Shown: positions 12,977 to 57,724 of the stretch, in pieces
Position numbering within the stretch: position 1 is the first letter of the stretch
Layout of the letters: each line of letters opens with the position of its first letter
Source: a virus
IMG/VR virus record: IMGVR_UViG_3300005253_000004
Span: 32,001-96,000 of that record
DNA length: 64,000 nt
Reading direction: 5' to 3' (one strand)
The notes under the pieces: model-generated
Told to the model about the DNA's origin: nothing
The model's input: only the letters and a program-made list of their open reading frames with translations
Database searches by the model: none
Made by a program: the position numbers and the translations under genes

Positions 12977-13321
12977 TCATATGGCCCTCTCCAGAAAGAC
13001 AAGTGTTGTTTCAATTCCATAGCTATGGAAGCGATAAAGCGCTTGGAGTCCTTGGGGTGCTGAAGTGTGGCACTGCTCACACACGATATCGTAGAGGGTA
13101 CCCTTCCCTTCTTCATTCTCGTAGTTAATGTAATAATGAGCCATCCTATACGTGTTGAAATTAGAACACTTATGAATGAAATAAGACTTCATGGTAGTGT
13201 TACTCCAAGAAGTTGGTATCCCATAAAGGCCCCAGCTTCCATCAACATAGAGTTCAAATTGCTTTATATTGCCTATATCTGACATCGTTTGGAAGAGGTT
13301 GAAACTGGTAGGTTTCCTCAT
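12977..13321 (-). CDS. paralogous Zn-finger family member
   Basis: DGSWGL..FIHKC..CEQCHTSAPQGLQALY. Confidence 0.75.
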   Translation of the reverse strand: MRKPTSFNLFQTMSDIGNIKQFELYVDGSWGLYGIPTSWSNTTMKSYFIHKCSNFNTYRMAHYYINYENEEGKGTLYDIVCEQCHTSAPQGLQALYRFHSYGIETTLVFLERAI

Positions 13322-14376
13322 TCAAGCCCCCGACCCCACCGAGTCATGCACCCATCCTCGATGCACCAATCGATCCACTCTGTATACGCCTTGTCGATCC
13401 CGCCCCGACTGAACACTACATCAGGCCAAGCAACCCTGGCGAACTCCTCATCGTATAGCTTGTAAGCCTGAGAGCCTTTCTTATGCTCCACCCATCCGGA
13501 CTTGATCGCGGCACGGAGTAGACTCTCAGTCGTGTCGAAGCCCACCGTGTTGAGCAGCGGGGTGTCCTGCACCTCAGGATAGTCTAATTGTGATCCTTTC
13601 AGCTTTTCTATTTTAAGGCTGATCTTCTGACCGAGCCGTTTGATCTTGTCCTTGTCCGTGATCCACCCTGCATGCTTCATCGAACAACGTACAGTAGCGG
13701 CAAGCTTGATGGAGTGCCCCCCAGAGGAGTCACTCTGCTTGGCGTACTTATTGGCTGTGATGTTGGCTGTCGCATGATTGATCATGAACAAGTTAATGTT
13801 GAGTCCAGCGATGTCAGGCTGGATACGACGGATACCACCACGGATAGTCTTGGCATCTTGTGCGATCTTCTCAATCTCGCCGATGGTCTTAGCCTTCATG
13901 CCTTCAGTAGCAGCGCCAGTAACAGAGTCAACCACAATGACCAGCGGCTTGCCATCGTTGTCTTCTTCTCTTGCCTCTAGGATGTACTGGATCTGTCGGA
14001 ACATGGCGTCTACTGAGTCGGGATCACCAATACCTAAATGATAGTCAGGGTCTACACCGCAGTCCATCGCTCGTAGTTCATCCCACGACTTCTCTGTATC
14101 AAGGAACCACGCGCTACCCCCCATACGCTGCGCTTCAGCGATGGCATGATAACCTAGTGTTGTCTTACCACTGTGCTCAAATCCGAATAATTCAACACAC
14201 CGGCCTGCAGGCCAGCCCGGTTTGCCCATGTTAAAATCTAATTCAGGCAAGCCAGTACGAATACTCCAGGGGATGTTACTCTTGATGTTGATGTCGCCCG
14301 GTTTGAACACGGCTGTGTTGGAATCTTTCTTTGTCTTCTTAGACACCGCTTTGAACATGTTGTCGAAGCTACCCAT
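13318..14376 (-). CDS. recA: RecA/UvsX recombinase
   Basis: GWPAGRCVELFGFEHSGKTT, VIVVDSV, SSGG; start re-called. Confidence 0.92.
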   Translation of the reverse strand: MGSFDNMFKAVSKKTKKDSNTAVFKPGDINIKSNIPWSIRTGLPELDFNMGKPGWPAGRCVELFGFEHSGKTTLGYHAIAEAQRMGGSAWFLDTEKSWDELRAMDCGVDPDYHLGIGDPDSVDAMFRQIQYILEAREEDNDGKPLVIVVDSVTGAATEGMKAKTIGEIEKIAQDAKTIRGGIRRIQPDIAGLNINLFMINHATANITANKYAKQSDSSGGHSIKLAATVRCSMKHAGWITDKDKIKRLGQKISLKIEKLKGSQLDYPEVQDTPLLNTVGFDTTESLLRAAIKSGWVEHKKGSQAYKLYDEEFARVAWPDVVFSRGGIDKAYTEWIDWCIEDGCMTRWGRGLE

Positions 14377-14389
14377 ATAATCTCCCAGC

Positions 14390-14434
14390 GGAAAAGCGGG
14401 GGTGGCCTCCGATTTCAGAGGCCCCACCCCCGCT
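14390..14434 (-). terminator. GC-rich hairpin with short U tail after SSB gene
   Basis: AGCGGGGGTGG..GGCCTCTGAAATCGGAGGCC..ACCCCCGCT TTT. Confidence 0.7.
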
Positions 14435-14439
14435 AGACC

Positions 14440-15174
14440 CTATTCTACCACAGCTTCCTGGGTAGCATTGTCCGACTTCGCGTACACATCCGCCAGCTCA
14501 TCATAAGAGAGCGGAGGGTATATCTCAGTCAGATCAGTGGGTTCACCGAAGTCCACGCCCTTCGCCGCGACCTGATCCACGATGTTGGAACGTGTAGGCA
14601 CGCCCATGACCGAGTACTCAGTATCGAACCGACCCTTGCCGGTGCGTGTGACCCGCAGCTCGACACCGTTGGTGATATTGGAGATGTCCCCCCAATCACC
14701 AGCCGGATCGTTGTCGAACTCCATGAACTGCTTGAACACCATCGACCCTGACTTGACAACGAAGATACCGTCAGCTAGAGTCTTGCCGTCCGGGCTACTG
14801 TATACACAGGCGTTGTACAAGTAGGCTTGTTTCGCGTACAGTTTCTTAGCCTTCTTGATGTTTATATCTCCCTTCGCCTCGTACAGTTCCTTACCTACCT
14901 CACAGATAGGACACTCGCTGTCGTCAATCGAAGTAGGACAAGTGACCGTCCCGTACTTCCCATCAGTCCTGAGCCCGTGCTCTTTGTACGCACGGAACCA
15001 CGACTTGGCTCCCTTGACCGGAGGGAGGATACGAAGATGGGTCATCCCCGCCTTCAGGAAGAGGGTCTTCCCATCGCCTCCATCTCTGATCTTCTTGGAC
15101 TCTTCATATGCCTCACGCTGAAAGTCCGGGTCCACCTCACCAAAGCCTGCGGGCAGGCCATTCTCATCTACCAT
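14440..15174 (-). CDS. gp32-like single-stranded DNA-binding protein
   Basis: LRILPP, H..CP...CPIC, G..L..TR.G....T.Y, acidic tail; next to recA. Confidence 0.8.
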   Translation of the reverse strand: MVDENGLPAGFGEVDPDFQREAYEESKKIRDGGDGKTLFLKAGMTHLRILPPVKGAKSWFRAYKEHGLRTDGKYGTVTCPTSIDDSECPICEVGKELYEAKGDINIKKAKKLYAKQAYLYNACVYSSPDGKTLADGIFVVKSGSMVFKQFMEFDNDPAGDWGDISNITNGVELRVTRTGKGRFDTEYSVMGVPTRSNIVDQVAAKGVDFGEPTDLTEIYPPLSYDELADVYAKSDNATQEAVVE

Positions 15175-15370
15175 TATCTTCCTCCTTATCTATGGATGTA
15201 GCAAGAATCCTTTCAATGTCAGCCACAGCCTCCCAGCGGGAATTGAACCCTATAGAAGGACCGTGGGTTTGTCCTGAAGAGTCAAGAAAAACCCAATGAA
15301 ACTGTCCTGCTTTCCCTTCGTAGGGGCCTCCGTAATCTTCGTAGATTTCTATCGATAATGCAATACCCAT
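15164..15370 (-). CDS. small hypothetical protein
   Basis: GAGGAG RBS, downstream of promoter. Confidence 0.65.
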   Translation of the reverse strand: MGIALSIEIYEDYGGPYEGKAGQFHWVFLDSSGQTHGPSIGFNSRWEAVADIERILATSIDKEEDNGR

Positions 15371-15420
15371 ATCTTCTCCTCATTCAGTATCGCCGTCGTT
15401 GGCGAATTGGTTATGCTCCA

Positions 15421-15449
15421 ATTATAGCTTTTCTTTCAAACTTTTGCAA
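15421..15449 (-). promoter_or_regulatory. conserved phage promoter copy 2
   Basis: TTGCAA AAGTTTGAAAGAAAAGC TATAAT. Confidence 0.85.
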
Positions 15450-16161: not shown

Positions 16162-16171
16162 TTACTTCTCC

Positions 16172-22021: not shown

Positions 22022-22231
22022 TCACATCACACCTCCCTTAGGGGTTGGAGCCCCACCCTTAAACTTGAAGCTAGTCTTTGAAATCAATCGACGACACGGA
22101 GAGCAGCACTGCACCTCGTTGTCGTCTTGATCGGTGCCCAGCTTAGGGCATACAGTCAACGCATCCTCAGTGATCCTCTGCTCGATCTCAAACTCATGAC
22201 CAGAGTCACACCTGTAGTCATAGTACGACAT
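22022..22231 (-). CDS. FmdB-family zinc-ribbon protein
   Basis: YDYRCDSGHEFEI.Q....L..CP...RRLIS...F.FKG. Confidence 0.8.
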   Translation of the reverse strand: MSYYDYRCDSGHEFEIEQRITEDALTVCPKLGTDQDDNEVQCCSPCRRLISKTSFKFKGGAPTPKGGVM

Positions 22232-22505
22232 AGTCAGTCTCCCACTCTTCCATGTTCATAGGGGTTTCCCATGCGGTCAAGAGATAAAGCGCCATGATCC
22301 CTTCAGGTGGTGAGGCTTTACACCGCTGGCACCGCTAATATTTCCAATGCACGACCGAGCACTCACCCTTCTCAGGGTCCACCTCAAGCTGAAAACCCGC
22401 AGGGCATGCATCGTGGGTGATAAAGTGGAGCATGCCAGCTTCCCGCCGGTCTTTGAAGAGCGTCCACCCTTCTATCTCGATCAGCTTCTCGTACTTGTCG
22501 CTCAT
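22218..22505 (-). pseudogene. Zn-finger family member interrupted by in-frame TAG (22335-22337)
   Basis: MSDKYEKLIEIEGWTLF..ITHDAC..HWKY*RCQRCKASPPEGIMALYLLTAW. Confidence 0.8.
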
Positions 22506-22810
22506 CATCGTTCCTTTTGGTTCACTGTCATAGCTTCGTGCGCTTCCGCCGCAGCATCTATAAGACAGTCAGGCTCAACCTCGTGCTCATCATAGAGTTC
22601 CAGCTTGTCCAGCGGATCCAGAATGTCCTTCTCCATACCCTCATACATACAGAGAGGCCGGTGCCCTGCTGCGTTGTGCTTCTGGGCAAACAAGCGCCAC
22701 TCAAGGTCGAGGCTGGCCTTCTCTTCACGCCAAGGCTCTGTCTTCCTAACGATCCACCACTTGAGCTGCTCGAAGGCCCCTTTGAATACCCTACCCCACG
22801 CTACTCTCAT
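22505..22810 (-). CDS. hypothetical protein
   Basis: GAGGAG RBS, 101 aa. Confidence 0.65.
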   Translation of the reverse strand: MRVAWGRVFKGAFEQLKWWIVRKTEPWREEKASLDLEWRLFAQKHNAAGHRPLCMYEGMEKDILDPLDKLELYDEHEVEPDCLIDAAAEAHEAMTVNQKER

Positions 22811-22830: not shown

Positions 22831-23247
22831 CTATCCGTCCAGCCTATAAAAATAGTACATCATTTCGATCTCACCCGGTATCACTTTCCCGCAGAGTTCA
22901 CATGCCCCGTGACTGAGTTGACATTCCACCGTCCCGTCTACCCAACCACTGTTCTTCACCATTCCAAACTCAAGGTGCTTGTGGGTAATGAAGGCACCGC
23001 TGACCATCCAATCATCTACGTAAACGTCTGCCTCATCTAGTTCAGTCACAAACAGCCCACCATGACCGAGGTACGCCAATGCGTCAAGGTGTGTCTGTGC
23101 TCCGAGGAAGGTGTCACCTTCCTTAGGCATGCTCAGGATCACTTCCCTGTAGTAAGTCTCCATGTCTGTATACTGGATGCCGTTCCATTCTATCCACATG
23201 GCGGCTCCTTTACCTGACCCGATGTAAGAAACAGAAGTCCCCCTCAT
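22831..23247 (-). CDS. Zn-finger family member with N-terminal extension
   Basis: DDWMV..ITHKH..CELCGKVIPGEIEMMY. Confidence 0.7.
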   Translation of the reverse strand: MRGTSVSYIGSGKGAAMWIEWNGIQYTDMETYYREVILSMPKEGDTFLGAQTHLDALAYLGHGGLFVTELDEADVYVDDWMVSGAFITHKHLEFGMVKNSGWVDGTVECQLSHGACELCGKVIPGEIEMMYYFYRLDG

Positions 23248-23717
23248 GCTGACCTCTCGCCAGGACATGAGGGGGGTGTGTATGTATGGCGCCATTGAAC
23301 CCTGTACATAGGGCTTCCCTTCAATGGAGCACTAATCTCCGGTCCTGAAGCTTGGGACGGCCGTCCCTGAGAAGCTCGCTCTTTAGACCTGACGGCTCCC
23401 AGCAGCGTACCACTGGAAGTAACTGATCCCCTGAAGTTGAGTGGATAGTTCCGTTGCCCAGAATACAATATCCCCTCAGGGGGGAGATAGCTGGAGTCAT
23501 GTACCGCAGTACAATTATTCCTATTCCCAACTATCTCAATAGAGAACCACTGTTCTTGTTGTAGTTCTTCATGTTGTTGTTGTTTATGTTGTTGTTTACC
23601 TTTTGGTGTGCCCTCTGGGCGTGTTGGTCTGATTGTTACCCTTTTCGAGCCAGGAGCGTGGATCTCCCAGTCTCTAGGCGAGGGTGCGTCCCGACGCGAA
23701 AACCTAAATGCGTTCAT
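23244..23717 (-). CDS. hypothetical protein
   Basis: GGAGG RBS downstream of promoter; low-complexity Q stretch; internal structure uncertain. Confidence 0.45.
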   Translation of the reverse strand: MNAFRFSRRDAPSPRDWEIHAPGSKRVTIRPTRPEGTPKGKQQHKQQQHEELQQEQWFSIEIVGNRNNCTAVHDSSYLPPEGILYSGQRNYPLNFRGSVTSSGTLLGAVRSKERASQGRPSQASGPEISAPLKGSPMYRVQWRHTYTPPSCPGERSA

Positions 23718-23806: not shown

Positions 23807-25207
23807 CTACCCTTTATTAGCCTTCGCTTTCTTCTGCGCTTGCAGCTCAGCAGGGGTGTACTTCCGCTTACGTGGGCCCTCATCAACCTCGCAAGTGTCT
23901 GCTTCTACTTCGTTATTCGTGATACTCATCCTGCTAAGGTCCACCTCAAGGAACACGCTCCGCTTGGAACGCTTGGCGAACCGCTGCTTGAGGTCAACCA
24001 GCTCCATCACGATCTCTTCATCGGATAGTTCTTGTTGCCGCATCCCAATGATGCAGGCTGCCTCTTGCAGATGCTTGACCGAACCTTGTGCCATCTCCAG
24101 GCTGAGAGGATCCCTCTTCTTCGGGTCCCTCCCGAACCCTGAGCGGTTGGTCTGCGCTGCTGTCCATACTAGTATGTTGTGGCGCTTCGCAAAACGGGAG
24201 AGATCACGGCTGATCGCACCCAGCCAATCCCATACCCTATCCCTACTGTACCCGGTATCACAAGGCCGCATCCTCTCGATGAAGTCCAGCACCAGCACGT
24301 CAGGCTTCCACCCGAGTAGGTTGACCCACTTCATCATCTCGGATTCGAGATCGTCCACGCTAACCTCTCGGTTTACCTCAGTAATCCGGAGCTTTTCATG
24401 TAACCCTTCTCGCCACTTCCGCTCCAGCTCTGGTGTGTACGCCACGCCTGGGTCATCGATGATGTCTTGCACCTTGACGCCTGTGATCTTAGACAGCACA
24501 CGTTCTGTCTGCTCCTCAAGCGACAACTCATTGGTGACCAGCCATACCCTGCGCTCCTCTACTGCGGACATCTTGTGCGCCATGTTCACCAGCATGCTGG
24601 ACTTACCATCCCCCGTGGGGGCCATTATGATACCGAGCTGCTTCGTTCGCAGCCCACCCCCTGTCCACTTGTCGATGACGTGGATCCCACACGGGATACG
24701 CACTAGCTCTGGTGTGAACCCATGGCTATCAATGAGGTTGTCGATGGCCTCGCGCACATCCATCGTCCTGTCCTCGTTCAGATCCCCATGCTTAGTGAGG
24801 AATCTGTACAAAGCTTTAAGCATGTCACCACCCTCAAGCTCCGCCTGCTTCTTCAAGAAACCTTGGTCTGCGCTCAATTCTTGGAAGTCACGCACCACAC
24901 CCGTATCCCTCGCCTTACCTAGCGTGTAGAGCTGGGTGGACCGGTCAGGTATGGTTTCTGTGATGCTGTCGAGTGCAGCTTTGTACCTCAAGTCGTACGC
25001 TTCCTTGTCTTTGTCTTCGAACACCTTGTGTAGTGTGTTGATGGACGGCTGCTCTCCGTGCTTTCGGGTGAAAGCAAAAAGCTCAGCCAGGATAGGTACC
25101 AGCTCAGAGGTGTTGAGCCACGAGGGCTTGAATGATGTCGCAAACTTGCGAGCGTCCTCCGGACGTGCGGTCAAGGCATAGAGGAAGGCCTTCTCATCGA
25201 ACTTCAT
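23807..25207 (-). CDS. DnaB/gp41-like replicative helicase
   Basis: APTGDGKS, TNELS, VLDF, TAAQTNR. Confidence 0.92.
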   Translation of the reverse strand: MKFDEKAFLYALTARPEDARKFATSFKPSWLNTSELVPILAELFAFTRKHGEQPSINTLHKVFEDKDKEAYDLRYKAALDSITETIPDRSTQLYTLGKARDTGVVRDFQELSADQGFLKKQAELEGGDMLKALYRFLTKHGDLNEDRTMDVREAIDNLIDSHGFTPELVRIPCGIHVIDKWTGGGLRTKQLGIIMAPTGDGKSSMLVNMAHKMSAVEERRVWLVTNELSLEEQTERVLSKITGVKVQDIIDDPGVAYTPELERKWREGLHEKLRITEVNREVSVDDLESEMMKWVNLLGWKPDVLVLDFIERMRPCDTGYSRDRVWDWLGAISRDLSRFAKRHNILVWTAAQTNRSGFGRDPKKRDPLSLEMAQGSVKHLQEAACIIGMRQQELSDEEIVMELVDLKQRFAKRSKRSVFLEVDLSRMSITNNEVEADTCEVDEGPRKRKYTPAELQAQKKAKANKG

Positions 25208-25482
25208 ACTAGGCTCCCTGCCGCTCTAGCGTAGTACGCTTTACCTACGTCTTTCTCTGAATTAAGGAGCAGCCAAACTATTACTATGCTCTCTGGCATA
25301 GAGAGACCACACTCATTACATTTTAAGTATGCAGGATTCATTGAGTGCCGTTTCCAGCTAGCCTCGCAGGCTAGGTGTGTAATTCCTGATCCTTGTTTTT
25401 TCCAATCTGCCCAACGAGGTTCTAGTATAGCCCACTCCCCTATCCTTATCAATTCTATTACATCTTTACCATTAGCTTTCAT
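25204..25482 (-). CDS. Zn-finger family member
   Basis: IGEWAI..ITHLAC..CNECGLSMPESIVIVW. Confidence 0.75.
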   Translation of the reverse strand: MKANGKDVIELIRIGEWAILEPRWADWKKQGSGITHLACEASWKRHSMNPAYLKCNECGLSMPESIVIVWLLLNSEKDVGKAYYARAAGSLV

Positions 25483-25542: not shown

Positions 25543-25896
25543 ATTCGAGCGAATAAACTGTTTAGGTGTAGCCTCTGCTTACGGTAGATCTTCTTCGTTG
25601 TTCCACATGTACAAGTTATGGAAGCCTACTATCTCATCTGGCTCAGAGGTTTCGCACTGGCCGCACACCCTATCGTAGTATAAGCAAAACGACCACTCTT
25701 CTTCGCTAAACCTAGAGATATCCCCACCACAGCGGTGTTGAATGACTACCCACTTACCATACTTAGGGCCGCTATCTGGCGCCGTGGCACGCACCATCCG
25801 CCAGTCACCCTTTGTAAATAGTATTTCAAATACCAGTCTGGGTTCTACTTTCATTTCTTACCTTTCGATTCGAGCGGACACACTGTTTAGGTGTAG
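25543..25896. repeat. 29-bp imperfect direct repeat (25543-25571 and 25868-25896) flanking one gene
   Basis: ATTCGAGCGAATAAACTGTTTAGGTGTAG versus ATTCGAGCGGACACACTGTTTAGGTGTAG, 26/29 identical. Confidence 0.9.
25579..25854 (-). CDS. Zn-finger family member
   Basis: KGDWRM..IQHRC..CGQCETSEPDEIVGFHNL. Confidence 0.8.
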   Translation of the reverse strand: MKVEPRLVFEILFTKGDWRMVRATAPDSGPKYGKWVVIQHRCGGDISRFSEEEWSFCLYYDRVCGQCETSEPDEIVGFHNLYMWNNEEDLP

Positions 25897-27318: not shown

Positions 27319-27585
27319 TTATACTGTATCTTCTTTGTTGTCCCACATCATTAAGTTGTGGAAGCCTATCATCTCTTTAGGCTCAAGCATCTTGCAGCAG
27401 CTACATCGCCGATTACTATGATAACAAAGTGACCACCCATTATCACTAAATAGCTTCTCTTCATATACACTTGAGTCACAACGATGTTGAACAATGAGCC
27501 ACTGCCCGTAGCCTCCCGGTCGTGTTACACGGACTAATCGAAAGTCACCTTTATCAACCAGTATGTTAAACTTGTAACTCATCAC
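27319..27585 (-). CDS. Zn-finger family member
   Basis: KGDFRL..VQHRC..CSCCKMLEPKEMIGFHNL; close paralog of 25579. Confidence 0.8.
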   Translation of the reverse strand: MMSYKFNILVDKGDFRLVRVTRPGGYGQWLIVQHRCDSSVYEEKLFSDNGWSLCYHSNRRCSCCKMLEPKEMIGFHNLMMWDNKEDTV

Positions 27586-28541
27586 ATGTCATCCCTTGAA
27601 CGCCACCCTAACCAAACCGGGAACCGAGGCTTCGCTGTCTCTCCGCTTGGCTGATGCTTGTACTTAGCGATGTACCCTATGTAGATCTGCTTGTTATTCC
27701 ACCATTCTTTGCGTTGCTTTTTCGTCACTCCCTTCATGGTGCCTATAGAGAACTCGATGCCTGTCTTGAGGTCACGACACAGCCACTTGCCGAGGTGCCC
27801 GTTGGGTACCTTGCCTGCCTTGGCGCTGGACCTCTCCGATCTACCATGAGCATTGGTTTTCTTGGGGTTGGTGTTGGTACACATCTCTTCAAACCCAATG
27901 ATCTCTGCCTCATCATCTTGGAAATGCTTGTACTTACCCATACCACCATGAGTCATAGTGCTGCGACCGTGGAGATACACATGTCCTTGCCTTGCGATGA
28001 CCCCTTCATACCCCTCGTCCACACACTTGTTCCAATACTTCATGAATCCTTCAGAATCAAAGACAAGGGTTGGTTTTACCAACTTGATGCACGCTGGCTT
28101 AGGCCTGGGCAGCTTGTCCAACTGCTTCACTCTCTGGTTATAGAAGTCAGGGTTATCATAGATATCGAACACGTAGTAGATAAAGTCAGGCTCACCCTCT
28201 ACCTTCATGATAGGACCGGAGGACTCACCGAATGTCTTGGCACCCTTGATGAACAGCTCACCATCCATGCCCTCTACCCCGTACTCTTCCAGCACCTTGC
28301 GGATGTGGAGGTTGGGGATGGGCTTGAGTTTGAAGCTCATAGGTGTCCCGTTTGGGTACGTGACACACCGGATCCCGTCAATCTTGGGGGTGCATAGCGA
28401 TGGGTACTGCACGTCTACCTTAGGGTCACGAATGGTAAACGGTTTCATAGGCCTGAAGGGGCCTTGTAGTTCTGCTTCTGTCTTGTTTACCGGCTTCCTG
28501 TACTTGGGCTTGTACTTCTTGAACGTCTTAGACTTTTTCAC
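27582..28541 (-). CDS. ATP-dependent DNA ligase
   Basis: KIDGIR, DGEL, YVFD, EGVI, PRFP. Confidence 0.92.
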   Translation of the reverse strand: MKKSKTFKKYKPKYRKPVNKTEAELQGPFRPMKPFTIRDPKVDVQYPSLCTPKIDGIRCVTYPNGTPMSFKLKPIPNLHIRKVLEEYGVEGMDGELFIKGAKTFGESSGPIMKVEGEPDFIYYVFDIYDNPDFYNQRVKQLDKLPRPKPACIKLVKPTLVFDSEGFMKYWNKCVDEGYEGVIARQGHVYLHGRSTMTHGGMGKYKHFQDDEAEIIGFEEMCTNTNPKKTNAHGRSERSSAKAGKVPNGHLGKWLCRDLKTGIEFSIGTMKGVTKKQRKEWWNNKQIYIGYIAKYKHQPSGETAKPRFPVWLGWRSRDDM

Positions 28542-40107: not shown

Positions 40108-40108
40108 C

Positions 40109-46409: not shown

Positions 46410-46598
46410 TTAGCTCCTTTTACACACTCTGGAGAAGCATAGCTTAGCAGACGAGGACAGTCCTCGTTGCGTAGAGTCAGTGCAGACCTTGCCTCTCTCA
46501 TAGGTGATGATGTTGCCTAATCTTTGGTTCTCTTCGATGTCGAGGCAGCAGCCTGAAATCCAAGGCAGCAGCAGCAGTACAACGATCAGGTATCTCAC
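46410..46598 (-). CDS. small lipoprotein-like protein
   Basis: GTG start; MRYLIVVLLLLPWISGC lipobox-like. Confidence 0.55.
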   Translation of the reverse strand: MRYLIVVLLLLPWISGCCLDIEENQRLGNIITYERGKVCTDSTQRGLSSSAKLCFSRVCKRS

Positions 46599-46894
46599 TA
46601 TGTCTCCTCGTTCTCGCAACGGTTGCCATACCAAACCAACTCTTGCATTCCTATTACTTGGTCGGGTGCTGACTCTCCGCACACCTGACAAGACCAGCCC
46701 TCCTTGAAATCGTAGTTGCAGTAGGCATACACAGAGTCTACTGAGTTGGCTTCGGTACATCTTGCATCATTAATGTGCTTGTGTCTAGCACCAGCATTCC
46801 ATTGGCGTCCCATGTGCCGATACCTATGGATCACCCAGTTATCTTCCAAATCTAGGTAGGTATCCTCTATAAAGCTTTTGAAGTGCCTGCTCAC
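46598..46894 (-). CDS. Zn-finger family member
   Basis: EDNWVI..RHKH..CQVCGESAPDQVIGM. Confidence 0.8.
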   Translation of the reverse strand: MSRHFKSFIEDTYLDLEDNWVIHRYRHMGRQWNAGARHKHINDARCTEANSVDSVYAYCNYDFKEGWSCQVCGESAPDQVIGMQELVWYGNRCENEET

Positions 46895-47062: not shown

Positions 47063-47311
47063 TTACTTCTCCCATGCACACAGGTTGATGAGCCCTTTGA
47101 AATGCTCGGGTATCTCAGCCATGCATACACTACATTGGACTTCACGCTTCAAAGCAGCCCCGTAGCACAGCGTGTCACAGTGGTGTAGATAATACCATGC
47201 TTCGTTGGATGGTGGATACTTTGTATCTCGGGTATACTTTATTATACCCCAACCATCAACCAATGGTGTCTTAGTAAAAACTAAGCCGGTTACGACAAGA
47301 CCATGAGTCAT
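47063..47311 (-). CDS. Zn-finger family member
   Basis: DGWGI..YLHHC..CSVCMAEIPEHFKGL. Confidence 0.8.
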   Translation of the reverse strand: MTHGLVVTGLVFTKTPLVDGWGIIKYTRDTKYPPSNEAWYYLHHCDTLCYGAALKREVQCSVCMAEIPEHFKGLINLCAWEK

Positions 47312-47493
47312 TCAGTCACCTCGATCTTAGCTACACGGTGCCAGAACACAGCACCGTACCTTTGCTTAGCCCCTTCGGCTAGCCACACATGGGCTTGGCC
47401 CTCGTTCTTGAACCCCGACTCGATGATGACCTGAGTACAAGTCACCTCGCCGGTAACATCCTTGTCCTCCAGAGTGAAGATTACTTTAGCCAT
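47308..47493 (-). CDS. small hypothetical protein
   Basis: MAKVIFTL; coupled. Confidence 0.55.
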   Translation of the reverse strand: MAKVIFTLEDKDVTGEVTCTQVIIESGFKNEGQAHVWLAEGAKQRYGAVFWHRVAKIEVTE

Positions 47494-47758
47494 CACTGAC
47501 CCCTTTGGCACCTGCCATGAGCAGCACCATCAAGCCTTGTATCTCATCAGGCACGGGCTCTTCGCAGTAGTAACAAACACACGGATCGTCGGAGGTGAAC
47601 CATGCGTAGCTTCCAGGTCGAACAGTTGTGTTTTTGGATAGCTTACGTACCTTACTGTAAACTTTGAGGTCACACTTATGGTTTGCATAGTACTCAAACA
47701 GGTGCTCTTCTTCGTTATTTATGATGTTCCAATTACCTAGAGTAAACAAGGCCATCAC
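47486..47758 (-). CDS. Zn-finger family member
   Basis: LGNWNI..ANHKC..CYYCEEPVPDEIQGL. Confidence 0.8.
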   Translation of the reverse strand: MMALFTLGNWNIINNEEEHLFEYYANHKCDLKVYSKVRKLSKNTTVRPGSYAWFTSDDPCVCYYCEEPVPDEIQGLMVLLMAGAKGVSDG

Positions 47759-52825: not shown

Positions 52826-53140
52826 TTAGGGGGCTTTTTGAGCAATTTGCATTATGGCGTACGCATGTTCTGATTCGAGCATCAAATACAAACATTCCAG
52901 CTCCTCCGGAGGCGATCTCAGACAGCGGGAGCAAGCCCAGCAGGGATCGGGGTGTCTTGCTCTCATGGGGAACTCGGCGTTCAAGTACAATACTAGTAGG
53001 TACTCAAGGCCCCCTTTGAGCACCGGTTGGCACAGGTGGTACATGTGGTGTAACCCCGAAACACTCGAAACACTCGATTTCGCTATCACCCAGTCGTTCA
53101 TTTCGAGCTTGATTTTTAGTCTGGAGCCGTCTTTAGTCAT
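52826..53140 (-). CDS. Zn-finger family member (tandem array)
   Basis: NDWVI..MYHLC..CSRCLRSPPEELECL. Confidence 0.8.
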   Translation of the reverse strand: MTKDGSRLKIKLEMNDWVIAKSSVSSVSGLHHMYHLCQPVLKGGLEYLLVLYLNAEFPMRARHPDPCWACSRCLRSPPEELECLYLMLESEHAYAIMQIAQKAP

Positions 53141-53382
53141 GCTCCCTCCTTCAAGAACCAGAACATGGCCTGGATGCCCTCCGGAGGAGCCTCCCTACAT
53201 GCGAAACACGGGATACCCCGGTAGCAAAGACCGTAAACGAACGGATGCCATTCCAAATCGCTTCCGCATTTATGCCTACTGCAGGAACCACGGCATCTAT
53301 GCTCGATGCTGATCGCCCGGATGGAGTTCAAATTGCGCCAGGCAAGCCGGAATGCCCCGATAGTGATTAGAGGCTCAGTCAT
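53137..53382 (-). CDS. Zn-finger family member (tandem array)
   Basis: GAFRL..IEHRC..CFACREAPPEGIQAMF. Confidence 0.85.
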   Translation of the reverse strand: MTEPLITIGAFRLAWRNLNSIRAISIEHRCRGSCSRHKCGSDLEWHPFVYGLCYRGIPCFACREAPPEGIQAMFWFLKEGA

Positions 53383-53653
53383 TTTCCCTCCTAGAGTCCA
53401 TATCTCCGGTCAGCATGACAAACAGCGCCTGAAGACCCTCAGGGACACGGGAGTGACATTGCGTGCAAGGATATTGGAAGTACCGATAGATGTCTCGCCG
53501 AGCTGTCCACCACGAATGTTCACAGTTATGCCACAGATAATACAAGTAAGGGGTTCCTTGCTGGTGTTCTGGCGTTCCTTCTGTTTGCTCGTACAGCCCC
53601 CACCCTGCTTCAAAGGCGATGGGGTCAGGTTGCGGTTTCGGTTCAGTATCCAT
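53375..53653 (-). CDS. Zn-finger family member (tandem array)
   Basis: EAGWGL..LWHNC..CTQCHSRVPEGLQALF. Confidence 0.85.
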   Translation of the reverse strand: MDTEPKPQPDPIAFEAGWGLYEQTEGTPEHQQGTPYLYYLWHNCEHSWWTARRDIYRYFQYPCTQCHSRVPEGLQALFVMLTGDMDSRREND

Positions 53654-53656
53654 AGT

Positions 53657-53878
53657 CTACTCCTCCTTCATGAATAAGAGCATCACTTGGATACTGTCCG
53701 GAGCTCTCTCTTGACAATTCCGACAAGGGCGATGACAAAGGCTAGGGGTTCCGCTAAACCCTTCCCATCGGTCCTTACACCGGTGCTCGATGAACCACCA
53801 GTCATATCCGCCCTTGTACCTGTACCGGGATAATCGGAAGTTTCCATATTCAAAGCGGACCGTTTTGTAGTCAGCCAT
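53657..53878 (-). CDS. Zn-finger family member (tandem array)
   Basis: GNFRL..IEHRC..CRNCQERAPDSIQVML. Confidence 0.85.
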   Translation of the reverse strand: MADYKTVRFEYGNFRLSRYRYKGGYDWWFIEHRCKDRWEGFSGTPSLCHRPCRNCQERAPDSIQVMLLFMKEE

Positions 53879-54110
53879 TGGGCTCTTCCTTCATAATCCA
53901 GAATATCGCTTGAAGGCCGTCTGAGGGACGACTCTTACACCAAGAGCACTTCCACCCCCGCGCCTGGACGCTGAAGATACGTCCGCGCCAGCAACCTTCA
54001 TCGTCGTGGCCTTCTGGCACGGGGCACTTGTGCTCTAGGTACGTGTGCCGCATTATTGTCCCCATGTGCCGGCGGACCAGTCGGTAATCATTGTCAGTTT
54101 TGAGAACCAT
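53871..54110 (-). CDS. Zn-finger family member (tandem array)
   Basis: NDYRL..LEHKC..CSWCKSRPSDGLQAIF; start re-called. Confidence 0.8.
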   Translation of the reverse strand: MVLKTDNDYRLVRRHMGTIMRHTYLEHKCPVPEGHDDEGCWRGRIFSVQARGWKCSWCKSRPSDGLQAIFWIMKEEPNG

Positions 54111-54124
54111 CAAGGTCGCCTCAA

Positions 54125-54550
54125 TCAGTAGGCCCTTCCTAAGGGGAGTAAAACCCCGCCTGACCAAGGCCCAAATGTACCCGGCGGGTCGTCTTCTTCC
54201 ACGCGCCTGCGCAGTTCCAGGACTTCGCTTACCTCCAAGGAGGTGTTGTCCGGCTCCAGCAGGCACCAGACAGCAACGATGCTTGCGGGTGGAACTGCGA
54301 AGCAGTTCTCGCAGTGCCAGTTGGGCTTGATCTTCCGGGTCCCGTTGATAGAGAAGTCAGACCCTATGTCGGCTCGGTACTCACAGAGGTACATATCCCA
54401 TTCAGTCTTTTCGCACTGGTGCCAGAGCCCATGCGTGGTGAACCTGTTATGATACTGGAGGATCCTCCACCGGCCTCGTTTGAGCTTCTCAGCACCGTAC
54501 TCTGTTTCGATGTACTCTGCTTGGGACTTCCATACGCCTTTCAGACTCAT
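54125..54550 (-). CDS. Zn-finger family member (tandem array)
   Basis: RGRWRI..LWHQC..CENCFAVPPASIVAVW; start re-called. Confidence 0.8.
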   Translation of the reverse strand: MSLKGVWKSQAEYIETEYGAEKLKRGRWRILQYHNRFTTHGLWHQCEKTEWDMYLCEYRADIGSDFSINGTRKIKPNWHCENCFAVPPASIVAVWCLLEPDNTSLEVSEVLELRRRVEEDDPPGTFGPWSGGVLLPLGRAY

Positions 54551-54813
54551 GACCCCTCCATCAAGAACCAGAAACACGCCTGAAGCCCTTCGGCGGGGCG
54601 TTCTTTGCATAAGGGGCATTCCGTGCCTCGGTTGCCGGTCGTGTAGATCATCCCACGCCATTGTTCTTCCCATTTAAGGCCAGCAACAGAGCACTTGTGC
54701 TCGATGAGGATTACTGCGGGGAGATACACGGCGCCCATCCCGGTTTGACGGGTGTACTGGCGAATTCGCCATCTGTCGATCTGGAGGTGGACTGTCGATC
54801 CGAGGTCACTCAT
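54547..54813 (-). CDS. Zn-finger family member (tandem array)
   Basis: DRWRI..IEHKC..CPLCKERPAEGLQACF. Confidence 0.85.
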   Translation of the reverse strand: MSDLGSTVHLQIDRWRIRQYTRQTGMGAVYLPAVILIEHKCSVAGLKWEEQWRGMIYTTGNRGTECPLCKERPAEGLQACFWFLMEGS

Positions 54814-55049
54814 GGCTTCATATCCCCTGTCATCAGGACGAACATTGCTTGGATCCCTTCGGGGACTGCTTTATGACACCAACCACAAGGGTGGTGTAGC
54901 CCTCTATACCTATACCGAGTAGCCACTAAGCCAGTGGTGTCTAGACATACGTGATGAAGAAAGTGACTCATTTGCCAGCTAGGGCTCTGGTCTTGTGTGA
55001 CGCAGAGGTCCCAGGTATCCTCAGACCAGATGACGTCTTTGGTCTTCAT
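54810..55049 (-). CDS. Zn-finger family member (tandem array)
   Basis: DTWDL..LHHVC..CGWCHKAVPEGIQAMF. Confidence 0.85.
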   Translation of the reverse strand: MKTKDVIWSEDTWDLCVTQDQSPSWQMSHFLHHVCLDTTGLVATRYRYRGLHHPCGWCHKAVPEGIQAMFVLMTGDMKP

Positions 55050-55429
55050 GGCTTGTACTCCCAGATCTGTCCAGGCTGCCCGATCGGTGTGCCACTACCC
55101 ATGTAGAAGAAACCCCCTGGGACTAGGTAGAGGTAGTTCGAGGAGTAGAAGGGTGAGAGCTCTTCTTGGTACTGGGGTTCTTCTAGGAGGTCGAAGTTCT
55201 TCAGCTTCCATAATCCCATGATCGAGTCCGGGATATCTGCTCCACAATGCATACAGGTCTGCATCGTCTTCATTTCCCAGGTGCTGATCGGCTTGTACTG
55301 GAGCAGAAAGTTCCACTTCCATTTGCACTTGTGATAAACTGTATCGAACATATCCTCGTACCCAGGGATACCCTTGATGATCCAGCCTTGATCCTTAAAT
55401 AGAACTCCTTCGTCACGCAAGCGACTCAT
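55046..55429 (-). CDS. Zn-finger family member (tandem array)
   Basis: DQGWII..VYHKC..CMHCGADIPDSIMGLW. Confidence 0.85.
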   Translation of the reverse strand: MSRLRDEGVLFKDQGWIIKGIPGYEDMFDTVYHKCKWKWNFLLQYKPISTWEMKTMQTCMHCGADIPDSIMGLWKLKNFDLLEEPQYQEELSPFYSSNYLYLVPGGFFYMGSGTPIGQPGQIWEYKP

Positions 55430-55701
55430 CCGTGCTCCTGCCCGTATCGCACCAGCTCCCAAAACCCAACCAGCTCAGTAGGAACGTCGGCGCAACAGTG
55501 GCTACAGCGTGGGTCGCCTTGAGGGTCATGTATCATGTTGGCATCCTTCTTCCACACGCTGGAGCATCGATGCCACAATGTGGCAGTCGGTTGCCTCGCT
55601 CTGCCCTTCGACGGCGGGCCTAAGTATTCATCGTTGATGATGAAGAACCCATCATCCTCCCACAGGATTTTCCGATCGAGAAACTTAGGCACGGTAGTCA
55701 C
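55426..55701 (-). CDS. Zn-finger family member (tandem array)
   Basis: DDGFFI..LWHRC..CSHCCADVPTELVGFW. Confidence 0.85.
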   Translation of the reverse strand: MTTVPKFLDRKILWEDDGFFIINDEYLGPPSKGRARQPTATLWHRCSSVWKKDANMIHDPQGDPRCSHCCADVPTELVGFWELVRYGQEHG

Positions 55702-56052
55702 TCAAAACGGCATGCCGCGCAGCGAATCGGCCCAAGGATCCGGCTCCGAAGCGTCTGCTATTTCATTTGTACTGCGGTCCCAGTCTAGCATGATGTAGGC
55801 CCCGGTTAGTCCTTCGGGGCTGAGAGCGTTGCACATCGTGCAGCGCCAGCCCTGCTCATCCGGACTAGAATCGAAGCTCCTCCACGCGCCGTACCTGCAC
55901 TCATAGATGGTACGGTGCTTGACGAGTTCTTCATCGCCGTAGTCATCGCAGTTGTGCCAGATCCGGACGTCCTTGCTCAATGCACTTTTCAGTAGCCGAA
56001 ACCGACCTTCTCGCATCAGCATTTGCATGTATGCCCTAGGTTGGTGCGTCAT
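55702..56052 (-). CDS. Zn-finger family member (tandem array)
   Basis: EGRFRL..IWHNC..CTMCNALSPEGLTGAY. Confidence 0.85.
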   Translation of the reverse strand: MTHQPRAYMQMLMREGRFRLLKSALSKDVRIWHNCDDYGDEELVKHRTIYECRYGAWRSFDSSPDEQGWRCTMCNALSPEGLTGAYIMLDWDRSTNEIADASEPDPWADSLRGMPF

Positions 56053-56327
56053 CCTAGCATAGCCTCCATATGTGTCATCTGCCATAAAGCTTGGATACTC
56101 TCGGGGATTTCTTCTTCGCACAACCCACAGCGAGGGGTGTTCTTCATGTTATCAGAGTGGACTACGAGTTCTTTTCGATCATCCTTAGGGCATTCATGAA
56201 GCACGATAGGTGCCTCGGAAAGGTGCTTCCACTTCACACCCCACTTAGTGGGTGCGAGGAGTTTCCACGTTCCTTCTTGGATTATAGGCGTATCGTTGTA
56301 CAAGTAGCGATCATCTTCTAGTCCCAT
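56049..56327 (-). CDS. Zn-finger family member (tandem array)
   Basis: EGTWKL..VLHEC..CGLCEEEIPESIQALW. Confidence 0.85.
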   Translation of the reverse strand: MGLEDDRYLYNDTPIIQEGTWKLLAPTKWGVKWKHLSEAPIVLHECPKDDRKELVVHSDNMKNTPRCGLCEEEIPESIQALWQMTHMEAMLG

Positions 56328-56339
56328 GGGTTCTTCCCT

Positions 56340-56546
56340 TTATCGCTTCTGGGGGCCTTCCGGCACCTTGAGGATGGTCCTGCTTTTGTCTAGCTTGCAG
56401 CCCTCGTCACAGTGGAACTTCATACTTTTTCTGCCGAACAGTTTCACGGCCTTCACAGGCTTATTGTGATTCCGACAGTAACGTATTTTCGAAAACCCTG
56501 CCGCACTCGGAAGGACTGTTCTCGGATTGCGCATTCGTTTACCCAT
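56340..56546 (-). CDS. small basic Cys/His protein
   Basis: CRNH..CDEGC; GGAGG RBS. Confidence 0.6.
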   Translation of the reverse strand: MGKRMRNPRTVLPSAAGFSKIRYCRNHNKPVKAVKLFGRKSMKFHCDEGCKLDKSRTILKVPEGPQKR

Positions 56547-56719
56547 TACCCCTCCGTAGGCTCCTTAATTCTGCGTTGGATCTCTCTGCGAATATCAGCC
56601 ACTATATACCCGCTACCCGAGTCGTCGTTGAAATAATCCTCATTGTCGTCTATGTATTCTATAAGTTCCTTCAGCTCGGCTTTGACTGCCATCTCTGCCG
56701 CGTATCTATTAATTCCCAT
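56546..56719 (-). CDS. small hypothetical protein
   Basis: Start re-called at MGINRY (AGGAG). Confidence 0.6.
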   Translation of the reverse strand: MGINRYAAEMAVKAELKELIEYIDDNEDYFNDDSGSGYIVADIRREIQRRIKEPTEG

Positions 56720-56727
56720 GGTGTCTC

Positions 56728-57057
56728 CTATGAGATTGGTGCTTCGTAAAGTCTGACTGCCATCGCAATGCCTTTGTCGAGAACGAACCCACACCCTTCA
56801 CACCAATACATCGGGCCGTCGTTGTTCTCGCGGAGCGTCATCTCTTTGTAGTCTTCTCGTCCTTCGCAGTGGTGGACGAGCATTTCGTGCGGAACTGTGT
56901 TGTACTTAACGAGGTACACGTTTTCGGCTATTTTCTTCACCGAAGATTCCGTCTTTTGCGTCTCTTCTTTGGAAGGGACTCGTTGGTAAACGGTGTCACC
57001 CTGACCGAAGAACGCGGGGCGAGCACGACGAATGATGCGAGCTATACCTTCCTTCAT
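56728..57057 (-). CDS. divergent Zn-finger family member
   Basis: LVHHC..CEGCGFVLDKGIAMAV. Confidence 0.7.
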   Translation of the reverse strand: MKEGIARIIRRARPAFFGQGDTVYQRVPSKEETQKTESSVKKIAENVYLVKYNTVPHEMLVHHCEGREDYKEMTLRENNDGPMYWCEGCGFVLDKGIAMAVRLYEAPIS

Positions 57058-57413
57058 AGCTCCTCCTCCATGATGATGATCCCTTTGATCCCATCAGAGA
57101 GGGTTTTCTCACAGCGACGGCACTTACCGTAGATGCTGATACCTCCTCCTTTGGTCTTGTAATACTCTACCCATGACGGAGCCCTGATCCTATCGTCGTC
57201 ACAGGCATGTGCCAATCGAGACCCTAGATCGTATTGTAGGGCCCTCCATGACGCGAACGAAAACCAGAGCGGGGAGTTCCTAGCAACGACGTTCAGCCGA
57301 GTGTACTCCTTCTGGACCCTCTCTACGATGACAGGCTTCGGGCACCAGTACCAGTCATCAATCTGAGGCCACATCTCTTTGCGGATGAGCGTTTTCCGAT
57401 GGTAGCTTCTCAA
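57054..57413 (-). CDS. divergent Zn-finger family member
   Basis: LAHAC..CRRCEKTLSDGIKGII; TTG start re-called. Confidence 0.65.
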   Translation of the reverse strand: MRSYHRKTLIRKEMWPQIDDWYWCPKPVIVERVQKEYTRLNVVARNSPLWFSFASWRALQYDLGSRLAHACDDDRIRAPSWVEYYKTKGGGISIYGKCRRCEKTLSDGIKGIIIMEEEL

Positions 57414-57724
57414 GCTAATCCCTCGTCGCCTGTCCCTAAGCCATCGCTCCAGATGGCTCGAAGTCCATTTTCGTCTTCTGAGTCCCATATTTCTTTGCAT
57501 CCTGTACAGTAATACCAGCCGTGAGTAAAGTCCCATCGGACCCTTTCAGTCAGGATCACCCATGTTGAGGGGTCCCCTGTATCTAAATCTTGCTCACAGA
57601 TATGCAGAAGGGGCTGTACCCCCTCGTTATCATGCAGGTTCGGATCTCTGACAAACCACGCATCCTTAGGGAGTTCCTTGACTGGAACCTTGTAAACACC
57701 AGTACCCTCTATCCATTCTTCCAT
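57410..57724 (-). CDS. divergent Zn-finger family member, probably leaderless
   Basis: DAWFV..LLHIC..CTGC..NGLRAIW; ATG 7 nt after -10 box. Confidence 0.7.
   Translation of the reverse strand: MEEWIEGTGVYKVPVKELPKDAWFVRDPNLHDNEGVQPLLHICEQDLDTGDPSTWVILTERVRWDFTHGWYYCTGCKEIWDSEDENGLRAIWSDGLGTGDEGLA

Follow-up and report, generated by a model that had tools for sequence, protein, structure and literature searches.

In the window examined here, a stretch of 64,000 nucleotides spanning positions 32,001-96,000 of the record IMGVR_UViG_3300005253_000004 (119,470 bp as a whole, complete, with terminal repeats), an uncultivated tailed phage of marine sediment encodes about 35 copies of one small domain family: namely, 31 strong members, two supported members, and two candidates (Table 1). 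All of these ORFs are on the minus strand, opposite to that used on the terminase side, and every copy lies in the early/replication arm, in the company of genes for PolA, RecA-like, gp32-like, DnaB, RtcB, ligase, helicase, and MoxR/VWA proteins. Fifteen of the copies (13 strong and two borderline) form a tandem array at 52826-57724. A preliminary description of this DNA had named 20 copies individually and counted 15 more in the array; indeed, all of them carry the motif set that it described.

Table 1. Members of the family and the promoter-like element in the window (G001, sister genome)
Feature	Coordinates	Strand	Score (bits)	Remarks
Member	12977..13321	-	58.9	Directly downstream of RecA/UvsX-like gene; external HMM E 5e-12; G001 orthologue 57.5% identical
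Member, probable pseudogene	22215..22508	-	41.3 (22260-22508)	In-frame TAG (22335-22337) just 5' of CxxC
Divergent member	22831..23295	-		Domain at C-terminus of 154-aa ORF; HxH replaces HxC; external HMM E 2e-4; motif recognised by eye
Member	25204..25482	-	46.6	Upstream of DnaB-like helicase gene; external HMM E 5e-12
Member, first AlphaFold model	25579..25854	-	64.2	pLDDT 81
Member	27319..27585	-	64.1	Flanked by ligase and RtcB genes; 46% identity with 25579-25854
Member	28528..28815	-	51.4
Member	31415..31696	-	61.8	Upstream of SNF2/ResIII helicase gene
Member	31683..31994	-	52.4	Tandem duplicate of 31984-32355 (46% identity); without G001 orthologue
Member, HxH variant	31984..32355	-	52.8	Without G001 orthologue
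Member	33449..33796	-	63.4	External HMM E 4e-24
Member	37272..37676	-	49.0	75-residue acidic C-terminal extension
Member	37673..37966	-	56.1	Downstream of DUF2201 metallopeptidase/VWA gene
Member, HxH variant	39343..39612	-	38.8	Between MoxR-like AAA and DUF2201 genes
Member	39609..39848	-	49.7
Member, HxH variant	39850..40149	-	42.9
Member	41498..41794	-	52.0
Member	46598..46894	-	52.5
Member	47063..47311	-	44.6
Member	47486..47758	-	53.9
Member	52826..53140	-	53.5	Last gene of tandem array
Member	53137..53382	-	55.2	Best paralogue 54547-54813
Member	53375..53653	-	59.7	Best paralogue 54810-55049
Member, second AlphaFold model	53657..53878	-	58.6	73 aa, essentially bare domain; pLDDT 93.4, pTM 0.80
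Member	53871..54266	-	62.8	Listed GTG start probably too far upstream
Member	54125..54673	-	61.7	N- and C-terminal extensions
Member	54547..54813	-	57.0
Member	54810..55049	-	57.7
Member	55046..55462	-	58.4	65-residue C-terminal extension
Member	55426..55701	-	55.7
Member	55702..56121	-	61.0	G001 orthologue 81.6% identical
Member	56049..56327	-	56.1
Candidate divergent member	56728..57057	-		HHC ... CxxC, without Pro; E 0.04 only; motif recognised by eye
Member	57054..57536	-	37.3	Domain at C-terminus of 160-aa ORF
Candidate divergent member	57410..57724	-		First gene of leftward arm; ATG 7 nt after -10 box; E 0.07-0.11; motif recognised by eye
Promoter-like 29-mer	57731..57759	-		TTGCAA-N17-TATAAT; heads tandem array; conserved

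An HMM iterated from the window itself converged on 31 ORFs (37-64 bits, E 7e-11 to 3e-19), and the first ORF below them scored 14 bits. When an external HMM, derived from 153 proteins none of which is encoded in the window, was applied to the 605 ORFs of the window, 32 were matched, namely the same 31 and 22831-23295; shuffled window ORFs gave no match (best E 0.15). The paralogous family is thus genuine and of very large size, far beyond chance. A search of the whole genome also gave 32 matches, the 32nd being 22260-22508; every one was within the window, and no copy was found in the remaining 55 kb. The pattern CxxC-x3-6-P[EDQ] matched the window ORFs 19 times on the minus strand and never on the plus strand. 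The ORF at 37045-37299 matches this pattern but is not a member of the family.

In the search against Pfam and PHROG, no family matched two or more of the 31 strong members and none at E <0.01; the Pfam zinc-ribbon models were significant for none of the 31, the PDB sequence search returned no family match, and Foldseek found no PDB chain at E<=1e-3 with either of two predicted structures. The domain, 65-75 residues long, is previously undescribed; the preliminary description had not recognised the family either. The same window also contains a true Zn_ribbon_8 ORF (22022-22231), which matches its own model.

Among the 31 strong members, the conserved columns are L13, G17, W19, L/I21, H37, C39, W47, C64, C67, P72, E/D73, I/L/M75, G/A77, L81, and W84. 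H37, C64, and C67 are present in all 31 and P72 in 27, while column 39 is Cys in 27 of 30 and His in the other three. In the alignment, this H, C, C, C set contains the sole invariant or nearly invariant residues, with no sign of a catalytic signature, and would fit a structural zinc site; the Cys-to-His swap at column 39, a change tolerated by a metal ligand, is consistent with such a role. Among paralogues, the segments between the motifs are very unlike in both length and sequence, as had been noted before, and the distance from HxC to CxxC is 16-36 residues in those 28 members for which a regular expression placed both motifs. Two members modelled separately with AlphaFold share one topology, a beta-sheet followed by a CxxC loop and a C-terminal helix, and the sheet is four-stranded in the better model (53657..53878). 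Each gene encodes one domain in which the predicted strand 3 ends with a His and a Cys (or His) that, together with the CxxC pair, probably hold zinc, which would staple the helix region to the antiparallel sheet.

Given that the conserved residues are putative zinc ligands or are hydrophobic or small, they are best regarded as builders of the scaffold. The preliminary description had proposed, furthermore, a common partner to which the conserved C-terminal helix would dock. In such an adaptor library, the constant helix would bring all paralogues to one shared effector while the variable surface recruits targets, as in F-box/PRANC proteins; candidate effectors are a protease or chaperone of the host, or the phage pair of MoxR-like AAA+ (40109-41257) and DUF2201 metallopeptidase/VWA (37963-39180) proteins, whose genes are flanked or separated by five members. 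Indeed, the conserved helix columns (75, 77, 78, 79, 81, 82, and 84) are spread over more than one face of the helical wheel. Their hydrophobic or small character is, however, expected equally from packing on the sheet and CxxC loop of a 70-residue domain, and no conserved polar surface residue was found among the alignment columns. Docking on a common partner thus gained no support, and we consider an adaptor library distinctly unlikely.

Regulators are frequent among the small zinc proteins of phages, and the family might instead consist of nucleic-acid-binding zinc proteins, either regulators of transcription or translation or readers of (modified) DNA, which control phage or host genes. 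In VIA-align, the top rows for the second model were 6acv (Z 5.5; rmsd 3.5 over 66 residues) and 2y8f (Z 5.0), followed lower by a T5 PC4-like ssDNA binder (Z 3.9), 3vyq (Z 3.4), and 6c1a (Z 3.3), and the first model matched 2y8f at Z 4.4. These weak neighbors include methyl-CpG-binding (MBD) folds (6acv, 3vyq, and 6c1a); nonetheless, all Z values are below 7-8, the stated level typical of unrelated best matches. Like our models, the MBD and PH-like/EVH1/Ran-binding folds combine a small antiparallel sheet with a C-terminal helix cap, but they have no zinc site and share only 4-7% sequence identity. While some members are basic (pI 8.5-10.3), acidic or neutral ones predominate: the net charge is -1 or lower in 17 of 31 and +2.7 or higher in five, two of these high values being probably overestimates caused by over-long N-termini. 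The family hence lacks the uniformly basic character of a generic DNA binder, and no conserved basic residue was found among the alignment columns. Some 35 regulators in a 119-kb phage would, moreover, be unprecedented, and we consider nucleic-acid binding unlikely.

The best-paralogue identity has a median of 34%, which suggests old duplications in a lineage-specific family. In the sister genome G001 (complete, 119,599 bp; PolA 87% identical), 28 copies were found by genome search and 29 by our HMM, and 21 of our 31 members have a reciprocal-best orthologue there, with a median identity of 61.9%. The corresponding identity is 75.9% for other ORFs of 50-150 aa in the same arm (Mann-Whitney p 0.011 versus the family) and 85.5% for those >150 aa (p 8e-5). 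Gene-wide dN/dS over the 21 orthologue pairs of these two genomes is 0.16-0.46 (median 0.32), compared with 0.14 for conserved ORFs of at least 200 aa. The orthologues therefore diverge faster than their neighbors and yet are under purifying selection, each paralogue keeping its own sequence. Between the orthologues of the two genomes, scaffold columns are 83% identical, the remaining match columns 57.5%, and internal insertions 59%, so that the paralogue-specific parts are also maintained. The loops called hypervariable in the preliminary description are accordingly so among paralogues but not between orthologues. No gene-wide positive selection, which an arms-race repertoire might show, was detected in any of the 21 pairs (dN/dS <0.5).

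These selection data disfavor the view that the genes are neutral or selfish filler, small ORFs without specific function that persist through ongoing duplication or gene conversion. Such a view could draw on the 10 members having no orthologue in G001 despite the closeness of PolA, and also on the nonsense codon in 22215..22508; TAG is a normal stop here, accounting for 11 of the 56 stop codons in conserved ORFs of at least 200 aa. The paralogues are, however, old, and the DNA repeats between them in the window are 60-81% identical over 27-45 nt with no exact patch beyond a 12-nt seed reported; we regard filler as highly improbable.

The 15-gene array begins 7 nt past the promoter-like 29-mer, whose copy there stands back to back with one on the plus strand (57771-57799). 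The 29-mer occurs six times in the window and not once in 100 shuffles, and an identical 29-mer is present in G001. Since it also stands 5' of replication genes at 5788, 15421, and 23777, it is no marker of a separate immediate-early class. T4 internal proteins, which are variable but share a constant targeting element, raise the alternative that the members are packaged in the virion and injected with the DNA; a constant motif, a variable remainder, and rapid turnover do resemble the hyperplastic loci of internal proteins. The confinement of all copies to the replication/early arm, away from the terminase side, leaves little room for this idea, and the conserved part is the entire fold instead of a short leader, making packaging very improbable.

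We are evenly balanced on the reading that we prefer, that an old, lineage-specific zinc-domain family has been turned into a repertoire of specialised, non-enzymatic binders for early host takeover or counter-defence. The surface outside the scaffold, three length-variable loops, and optional tails distinguish the paralogues but are kept by orthologues; from this we infer that each paralogue would act as a binder with its own target. All copies lie in the early/replication arm, and 15 of them are arrayed next to a sigma-70-like promoter; they would be expressed early, and their position and turnover make an anti-defence or host-takeover role plausible as the most likely use.

Small zinc proteins of the classical phage types (zinc ribbons, Lar, Ogr/Delta, and TraR/DksA) are likewise short and contain structural zinc, which is putative in the present family, and the zinc site of T4 gp32 has the same Cys3His ligand set. 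The putative ligands here are nonetheless HxC and CxxC, separated by 16-36 residues and set on a predicted four-strand sheet, and not two CxxC knuckles. Poxvirus ankyrin/PRANC and ASFV MGF proteins, which interact with the host and turn over between relatives, are alike in concept in that one scaffold is amplified to tens of copies per virus genome, but they belong to eukaryotic viruses with other folds and much larger genomes. According to the source on AcrID1 (PMC11065993), 26 of 35 homologues are encoded by four rudiviruses of Sulfolobus, with family identity down to 7.3%. As described there, that family resembles ours in having several diverged small-protein paralogues close together in one viral genome, very low pairwise identity, and early genes that have a highly conserved promoter sequence in common, early expression being inferred in the phage. 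It differs in being an unrelated protein of archaeal viruses with far fewer copies per genome than about 35 and with demonstrated anti-CRISPR activity, while any such counter-defence role of the phage family is putative; no link to AcrID1 was found by sequence or fold. The arthropod zinc-finger-associated domain (ZAD; PMC7913770) is another small zinc-stabilised domain (putatively so here) with fast lineage-specific expansion and diversification. ZAD is, however, a eukaryotic N-terminal dimerisation module on C2H2 arrays, whereas the phage domain stands alone, and no homology between the two was detected.

The family extends beyond our phage and G001: 946 representative proteins among 1.84 billion searched match at E<=1e-3. 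The distant G003, a 49-kb fragment, has 16 copies by genome search and 19 by our HMM, and only 57054..57536 has a clear orthologue there (55%). Small metagenome contigs are dense arrays; those of 7.0, 2.0, and 1.3 kb have 11, 6, and 5 domain matches, respectively.

The pattern CxxC-x3-6-P[EDQ], applied as a regular expression to the ORFs of the window, matched 19 minus-strand ORFs but not a single plus-strand one. An iterated HMM, which was seeded with 18 of these 19 ORFs and converged after one round, aligned 31 ORFs into one family, all on the minus strand and with scores of 37–64 bits, the next-best ORF scoring 14 bits. Because this HMM came from the window itself, a second one was built only from 153 metagenomic proteins, none of which comes from the window; it recovered all 31 ORFs together with 22831-23295 (32 of the 605 window ORFs, again all on the minus strand) and had no match among the same 605 ORFs when shuffled (best E, 0.15). 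In a six-frame search of the whole genome, furthermore, there were 32 matches, every one of them within the window, and the 32nd was 22260-22508, the frame of which is interrupted by a TAG immediately ahead of the CxxC. Recoding of TAG in this interrupted copy was rejected: TAG serves normally as a stop here, ending 11 of the 56 conserved ORFs of at least 200 aa and 3 of the 31 family genes, and the copy is therefore probably a pseudogene. Two other ORFs, 56728-57057 and 57410-57724, were below significance, yet the motif set is visible in them by eye. All 20 of the members that the preliminary description had listed individually are indeed members, and its count of 15 genes in the array at 52826-57724 is reached once these two borderline ORFs are included. 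Not taken as members were 37045-37299, a match to the regular expression with E of 0.8 by the HMM, and also 16296-16520 (E, 0.003–0.045) and 19567-19860, in which CxxC pairs are present and the scaffold is absent.

The conserved columns of the family are L, G-x-W, L/I, H-x-C, W, C-x-x-C, P-[E/D], [I/L/M], [G/A], L, and W, the rest being variable, and this per-column profile reproduces the motif string proposed earlier. HxC and CxxC are 16–36 residues apart in the 28 members in which both motifs were located by regular expression. Three of the putative metal ligands are invariant (H, C, and C; 31/31 each), and at the fourth position 27 of 30 members have C and 3 have H; the same invariance was observed in an alignment of 149 sequences. 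His replaces the Cys of HxC in four members, or five with 22831-23295. Two members were modelled separately, namely 25579-25854 from the alignment of 31 sequences (pLDDT 81, pTM 0.70) and the 73-residue 53657-53878 from that of 149 sequences (pLDDT 93.4, pTM 0.80), and they are predicted to fold alike, with strands, a long loop bearing CxxC, and a C-terminal helix. In the latter model, a four-strand meander (residues 4-11, 14-20, 26-34, and 37-42) is followed by the helix (61-72); strand 3 ends with the invariant His and the following Cys, and CxxC precedes the helix-capping Pro. These residues would probably hold a single structural zinc, ligated as Cys3His or Cys2His2. A predicted complex of two copies with two zinc ions scored 0.01, which gives no verdict for or against a homodimer.

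Known families were searched for both by sequence and by fold. With the 31 members, Pfam-A (2025 copy) at E ≤ 10 returned eight families, each matched by one member, with the best E of 0.015 and none near the gathering cut-off, and the outcome was the same in a scan of ten members alone; PHROG v4 returned 13 PHROGs, again by one member each (best E, 0.01), and ten members alone had likewise yielded no PHROG family. An HNH or beta-beta-alpha-Me nuclease was rejected, as none of the 31 members matches the HNH models and the invariant polar residues are only H, C, C, and C, whereas this class requires a catalytic His plus Asn/His beyond the zinc ligands. A zinc ribbon or two-knuckle finger was also rejected; that class requires a pair of beta-hairpins, each with a CxxC (or CxxH) knuckle, but the alignment has a single CxxC, along with one HxC (or HxH) where a strand ends, and the only zinc-ribbon match was zinc_ribbon_16 with a single member of the 31 (E, 0.042). 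Genuine HNH ORFs and a genuine zinc-ribbon ORF of the window match their own models, but the family members do not (see the table). Among the sequences of solved structures in the PDB, the 31-sequence profile matched best to de novo designed TIM barrels, over 17 residues (E, 0.0042), and the best E with the 149-sequence profile was 0.27. Foldseek recognised no known fold at E ≤ 1e-3, either for both models in the PDB or for the first model in BFVD. In a wide VIA-align search, the best Z was 4.4 for the first and 5.5 for the second model, where unrelated best hits are typically at Z 7–8 by the tool's own statement; the MBD fold (6acv; Z 5.5, rmsd 3.5 A, 66 aligned residues, 4% identity), a Ran-binding domain (2y8f; Z 5.0 and 4.4), and EVH1 domains (Z 3.6–4.2) are all below this stated background. 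The PH-like superfold is a seven-strand sandwich with a C-terminal helix; the family models have four strands only. The best feature scores in the ESM Atlas, 0.86 and 0.75 (the latter "TreK"), were both within the range of shuffled proteins.

Features of the window (window coordinates)
Feature	Position	Strand	Remark
Family-A DNA polymerase	16510-19077	-	N-terminal UDG-superfamily domain (residues 44-181, E 6e-11)
RecA/UvsX-like, gp32-like, DnaB-like helicase		-	arm replication genes
RtcB, DNA ligase, SNF2/ResIII helicase		-	arm genes
SbcC-like, SbcD-like, endonuclease VII		-	arm genes
MoxR-like AAA, DUF2201 metallopeptidase/VWA, large glycosyltransferase		-	arm genes
AAA protein	4639-5769		
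MoxR-like AAA (40109-41257) / DUF2201 metallopeptidase/VWA (37963-39180) pair	37963-41257	-	three family members between, two directly downstream
Terminase large subunit	starts 62622		opens the opposite arm
HNH ORF	58668-59108	+	HNH_3, E 6e-11; between strand switch and terminase gene
HNH ORF	60341-60961	+	HNH_5, E 7e-11; between strand switch and terminase gene
Zn_ribbon_8 (FmdB-like) ORF	22022-22231	-	34.3 bits, cut-off 34.4; unrelated to family; adjoins TAG-interrupted member
29-mer	5788-5816	-	
29-mer	15421-15449	-	
29-mer	23777-23805	-	
29-mer	30203-30231	-	within SNF2 helicase gene
29-mer	57731-57759	-	heads the array; TTGCAA-N17-TATAAT
29-mer	57771-57799	+	back-to-back, divergent with 57731-57759
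25-nt direct repeat with TATAAT	57821-57845, 60010-60034	+	92% identical
21-nt-unit tandem repeat	48009-48366		about 17 copies, 65-96% identity
Dispersed direct repeats	44941-51213		53, 41 and 23 nt; 3-4 copies each; 70-87% identical
121-nt direct repeat	16165-16285, 16503-16623		80% identical

Relatives of the family were sought by a profile search of 1.84 billion proteins, in which 946 representatives of 65–192 residues were retrieved at E ≤ 1e-3, none on contigs above about 120 kb. The named matches are called only "hypothetical protein", so that no homologue has a name pointing to anti-defence activity, and none of them has a Pfam domain. A related PolA was found on 16 viral contigs (15 at 61–87% identity and one at 27%). 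When five related records were searched with the family, the complete 119,599-bp sister genome (G001) gave 28 matches by genome search and 29 by the family HMM, a 49-kb fragment (G003) gave 16 and 19, respectively, and three further fragments gave 1–5 each; also, metagenome contigs of 6,988, 1,993, and 1,296 bp have 11, 6, and 5 domain hits. The multi-copy state is hence kept in relatives, and the high copy numbers in G001, the 49-kb fragment, and the small contigs indicate that the expansion is a trait of the lineage rather than a peculiarity of a single assembly. More than one domain per protein was seen in one case only, a 192-aa protein with two family domains fused in tandem (P0001; 5404-5991 of the metagenome contig L028, 7 kb in length with 11 domain hits); no longer or fused forms were found among proteins of 320–2000 aa, which is weak evidence by the tool's own account. 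Among GenBank phages, there was no match to a family member by tblastn, to a terminase fragment at 1e-10, or to 20 kb by megablast, and PolA identity was 26% at most; therefore, no cultured relative was found. Public runs with this DNA are three from a single study, all of DNA and labelled marine sediment metagenome; they may be its source, and no RNA run is among them. As to the host, the window has no tRNA genes, and a PolA scan of genome contigs was uninformative, its one match being the PolA of a Patescibacteria MAG at 27% identity.

Within the genome, the paralogues are old: identity to the best paralogue has a median of 34%, and only three pairs reach 46–49%. Two reciprocal best-paralogue pairs, 53137/54547 and 53375/54810, agree with duplication of a two-gene block. 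Recent gene conversion between paralogues was rejected, as no long identical DNA patches between them were found in the window, the repeats that they share being 60–81% identical over merely 27–45 nt. Of the 31 members, 21 can be paired with a reciprocal-best orthologue in G001, which leaves 10 without one; the more distant G003 has a clear orthologue for one member only. The family orthologues in G001 are 61.9% identical (median), as compared to 75.9% for the other 50–150-aa ORFs of the same arm, i.e., the minus-strand early/replication arm that holds all family copies (Mann-Whitney p, 0.011), and 85.5% for arm ORFs above 150 aa (p, 8e-5); this comparison used a minus-strand-only gene set with family ORFs forced in, and the reciprocal-best table includes shadow ORFs, its median of 80% being only rough.

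Fast-evolving in this comparison, the family is nonetheless under purifying selection, with Nei-Gojobori dN/dS of 0.16–0.46 (median 0.32) in the 21 orthologue pairs, some of which approach saturation given dS of 0.4–2.0; the value is 0.14 for 47 conserved ORFs of at least 200 aa, a control set that may still contain a few shadow ORFs. Identity in the orthologue pairs is 83% at scaffold columns, 57.5% at other match columns, and 59% in internal insertions. The loops, which had been called hypervariable, thus differ strongly from one paralogue to the next, yet orthologues retain them, and this is the pattern that specialised, individually useful genes would show. It also counts against the members being neutral filler, which we regard as highly unlikely.

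The conserved residues are the metal ligands, an aromatic/aliphatic core, a glycine turn, and a helix cap, and nothing conserved looks catalytic from the alignment. We propose that the domain would be a non-enzymatic binding module, the specificity of which would reside in the paralogue-specific surface and loops, and that it would be expressed from the early/replication arm to serve in host takeover or counter-defence; this is the best-supported reading, and to it as a whole we give an even chance. Binding of nucleic acids by the members is an unlikely alternative, and the family is not uniformly basic. It is very improbable that the members are packaged proteins. The preliminary description had the conserved helix dock on a common partner, but such a partner is not needed to account for conservation of the helix, and we consider this idea rather doubtful. 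An extension of it, somewhat more of a long shot, is an adaptor library, in which a zinc-stapled scaffold with a constant docking helix would feed about 35 recognition surfaces into a single effector, and many host proteins would be captured, remodelled, or destroyed. Candidate effectors would be the phage's MoxR-like AAA+ and metallopeptidase/VWA pair, the genes of which are interleaved with five members, or a host protease. If true, such a library would be a bacterial-virus counterpart of the F-box or PRANC substrate-receptor families and could hit defence proteins among many host proteins at once.

The multigene families of poxviruses and ASFV offer a conceptual parallel to this family. To our knowledge, tailed phages of this size rarely give so much of the genome to one small domain; the family takes up about 8% of the genome and about 31 of the approximately 112 arm ORFs of at least 50 aa. 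A full-text literature search turned up no paper on a comparable zinc-domain expansion in a tailed phage. The closest documented parallel found is the AcrID1 family of rudiviruses, in which several small, diverged homologues sit together in a genome and share an early promoter; its sequence is unrelated, and its copies are far fewer (PMC11065993). ZAD domains are a parallel in concept only. Viral multigene families for host interaction are of a known kind, and the protein domain itself is new to the databases searched: it is without a relative in Pfam, PHROGs, and the PDB, yet its fold is predicted at very high confidence, and it combines purifying selection with an expansion kept in related phages and with metagenomic sequences that form at least 946 clusters. 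Should the copies be specialised binders, they would form a ready-made natural library on a zinc scaffold of about 70 residues, could yield new proteins for host takeover or counter-defence, and would provide a tractable case of how a virus diversifies a single fold towards many targets. For structure determination, the 73-residue member 53657-53878 would be well suited.

The record is 119,470 bp with direct terminal repeats and is rated 100% complete, the window corresponding to bases 32001-96000. Family members are placed singly or in twos and threes among the replication genes, stops and starts often overlapping, and the remaining ones are packed as the array. The promoter-like 29-mer at the head of the array (TTGCAA-N15-GCTATAAT) occurs in six copies in the window versus none in 100 shuffles. 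A looser expression finds 10 promoter-like sites genome-wide and 10 in G001, and the exact consensus 29-mer of 15421 and 57731 is present identically in G001. The first ATG of the array (57724) is 7 nt past the -10 hexamer, a distance also seen in G001 (promoter, 33309-33337; ATG, 33344); as this gap has no room for a ribosome-binding site, the mRNA of the first array gene may be leaderless. Since the same type of promoter precedes replication genes, it does not alone define an immediate-early class.

Several repeats were also noticed. The 25-nt repeat with TATAAT may be a second promoter class for rightward genes. In the small-gene block between the replication region and the array, the dispersed repeats may be regulatory or intergenic elements. 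The 21-nt-unit tandem repeat lies within overlapping ORFs and would encode a 7-residue peptide repeat, and the 121-nt repeat flanks ORF 16296-16520 and adjoins the PolA start.
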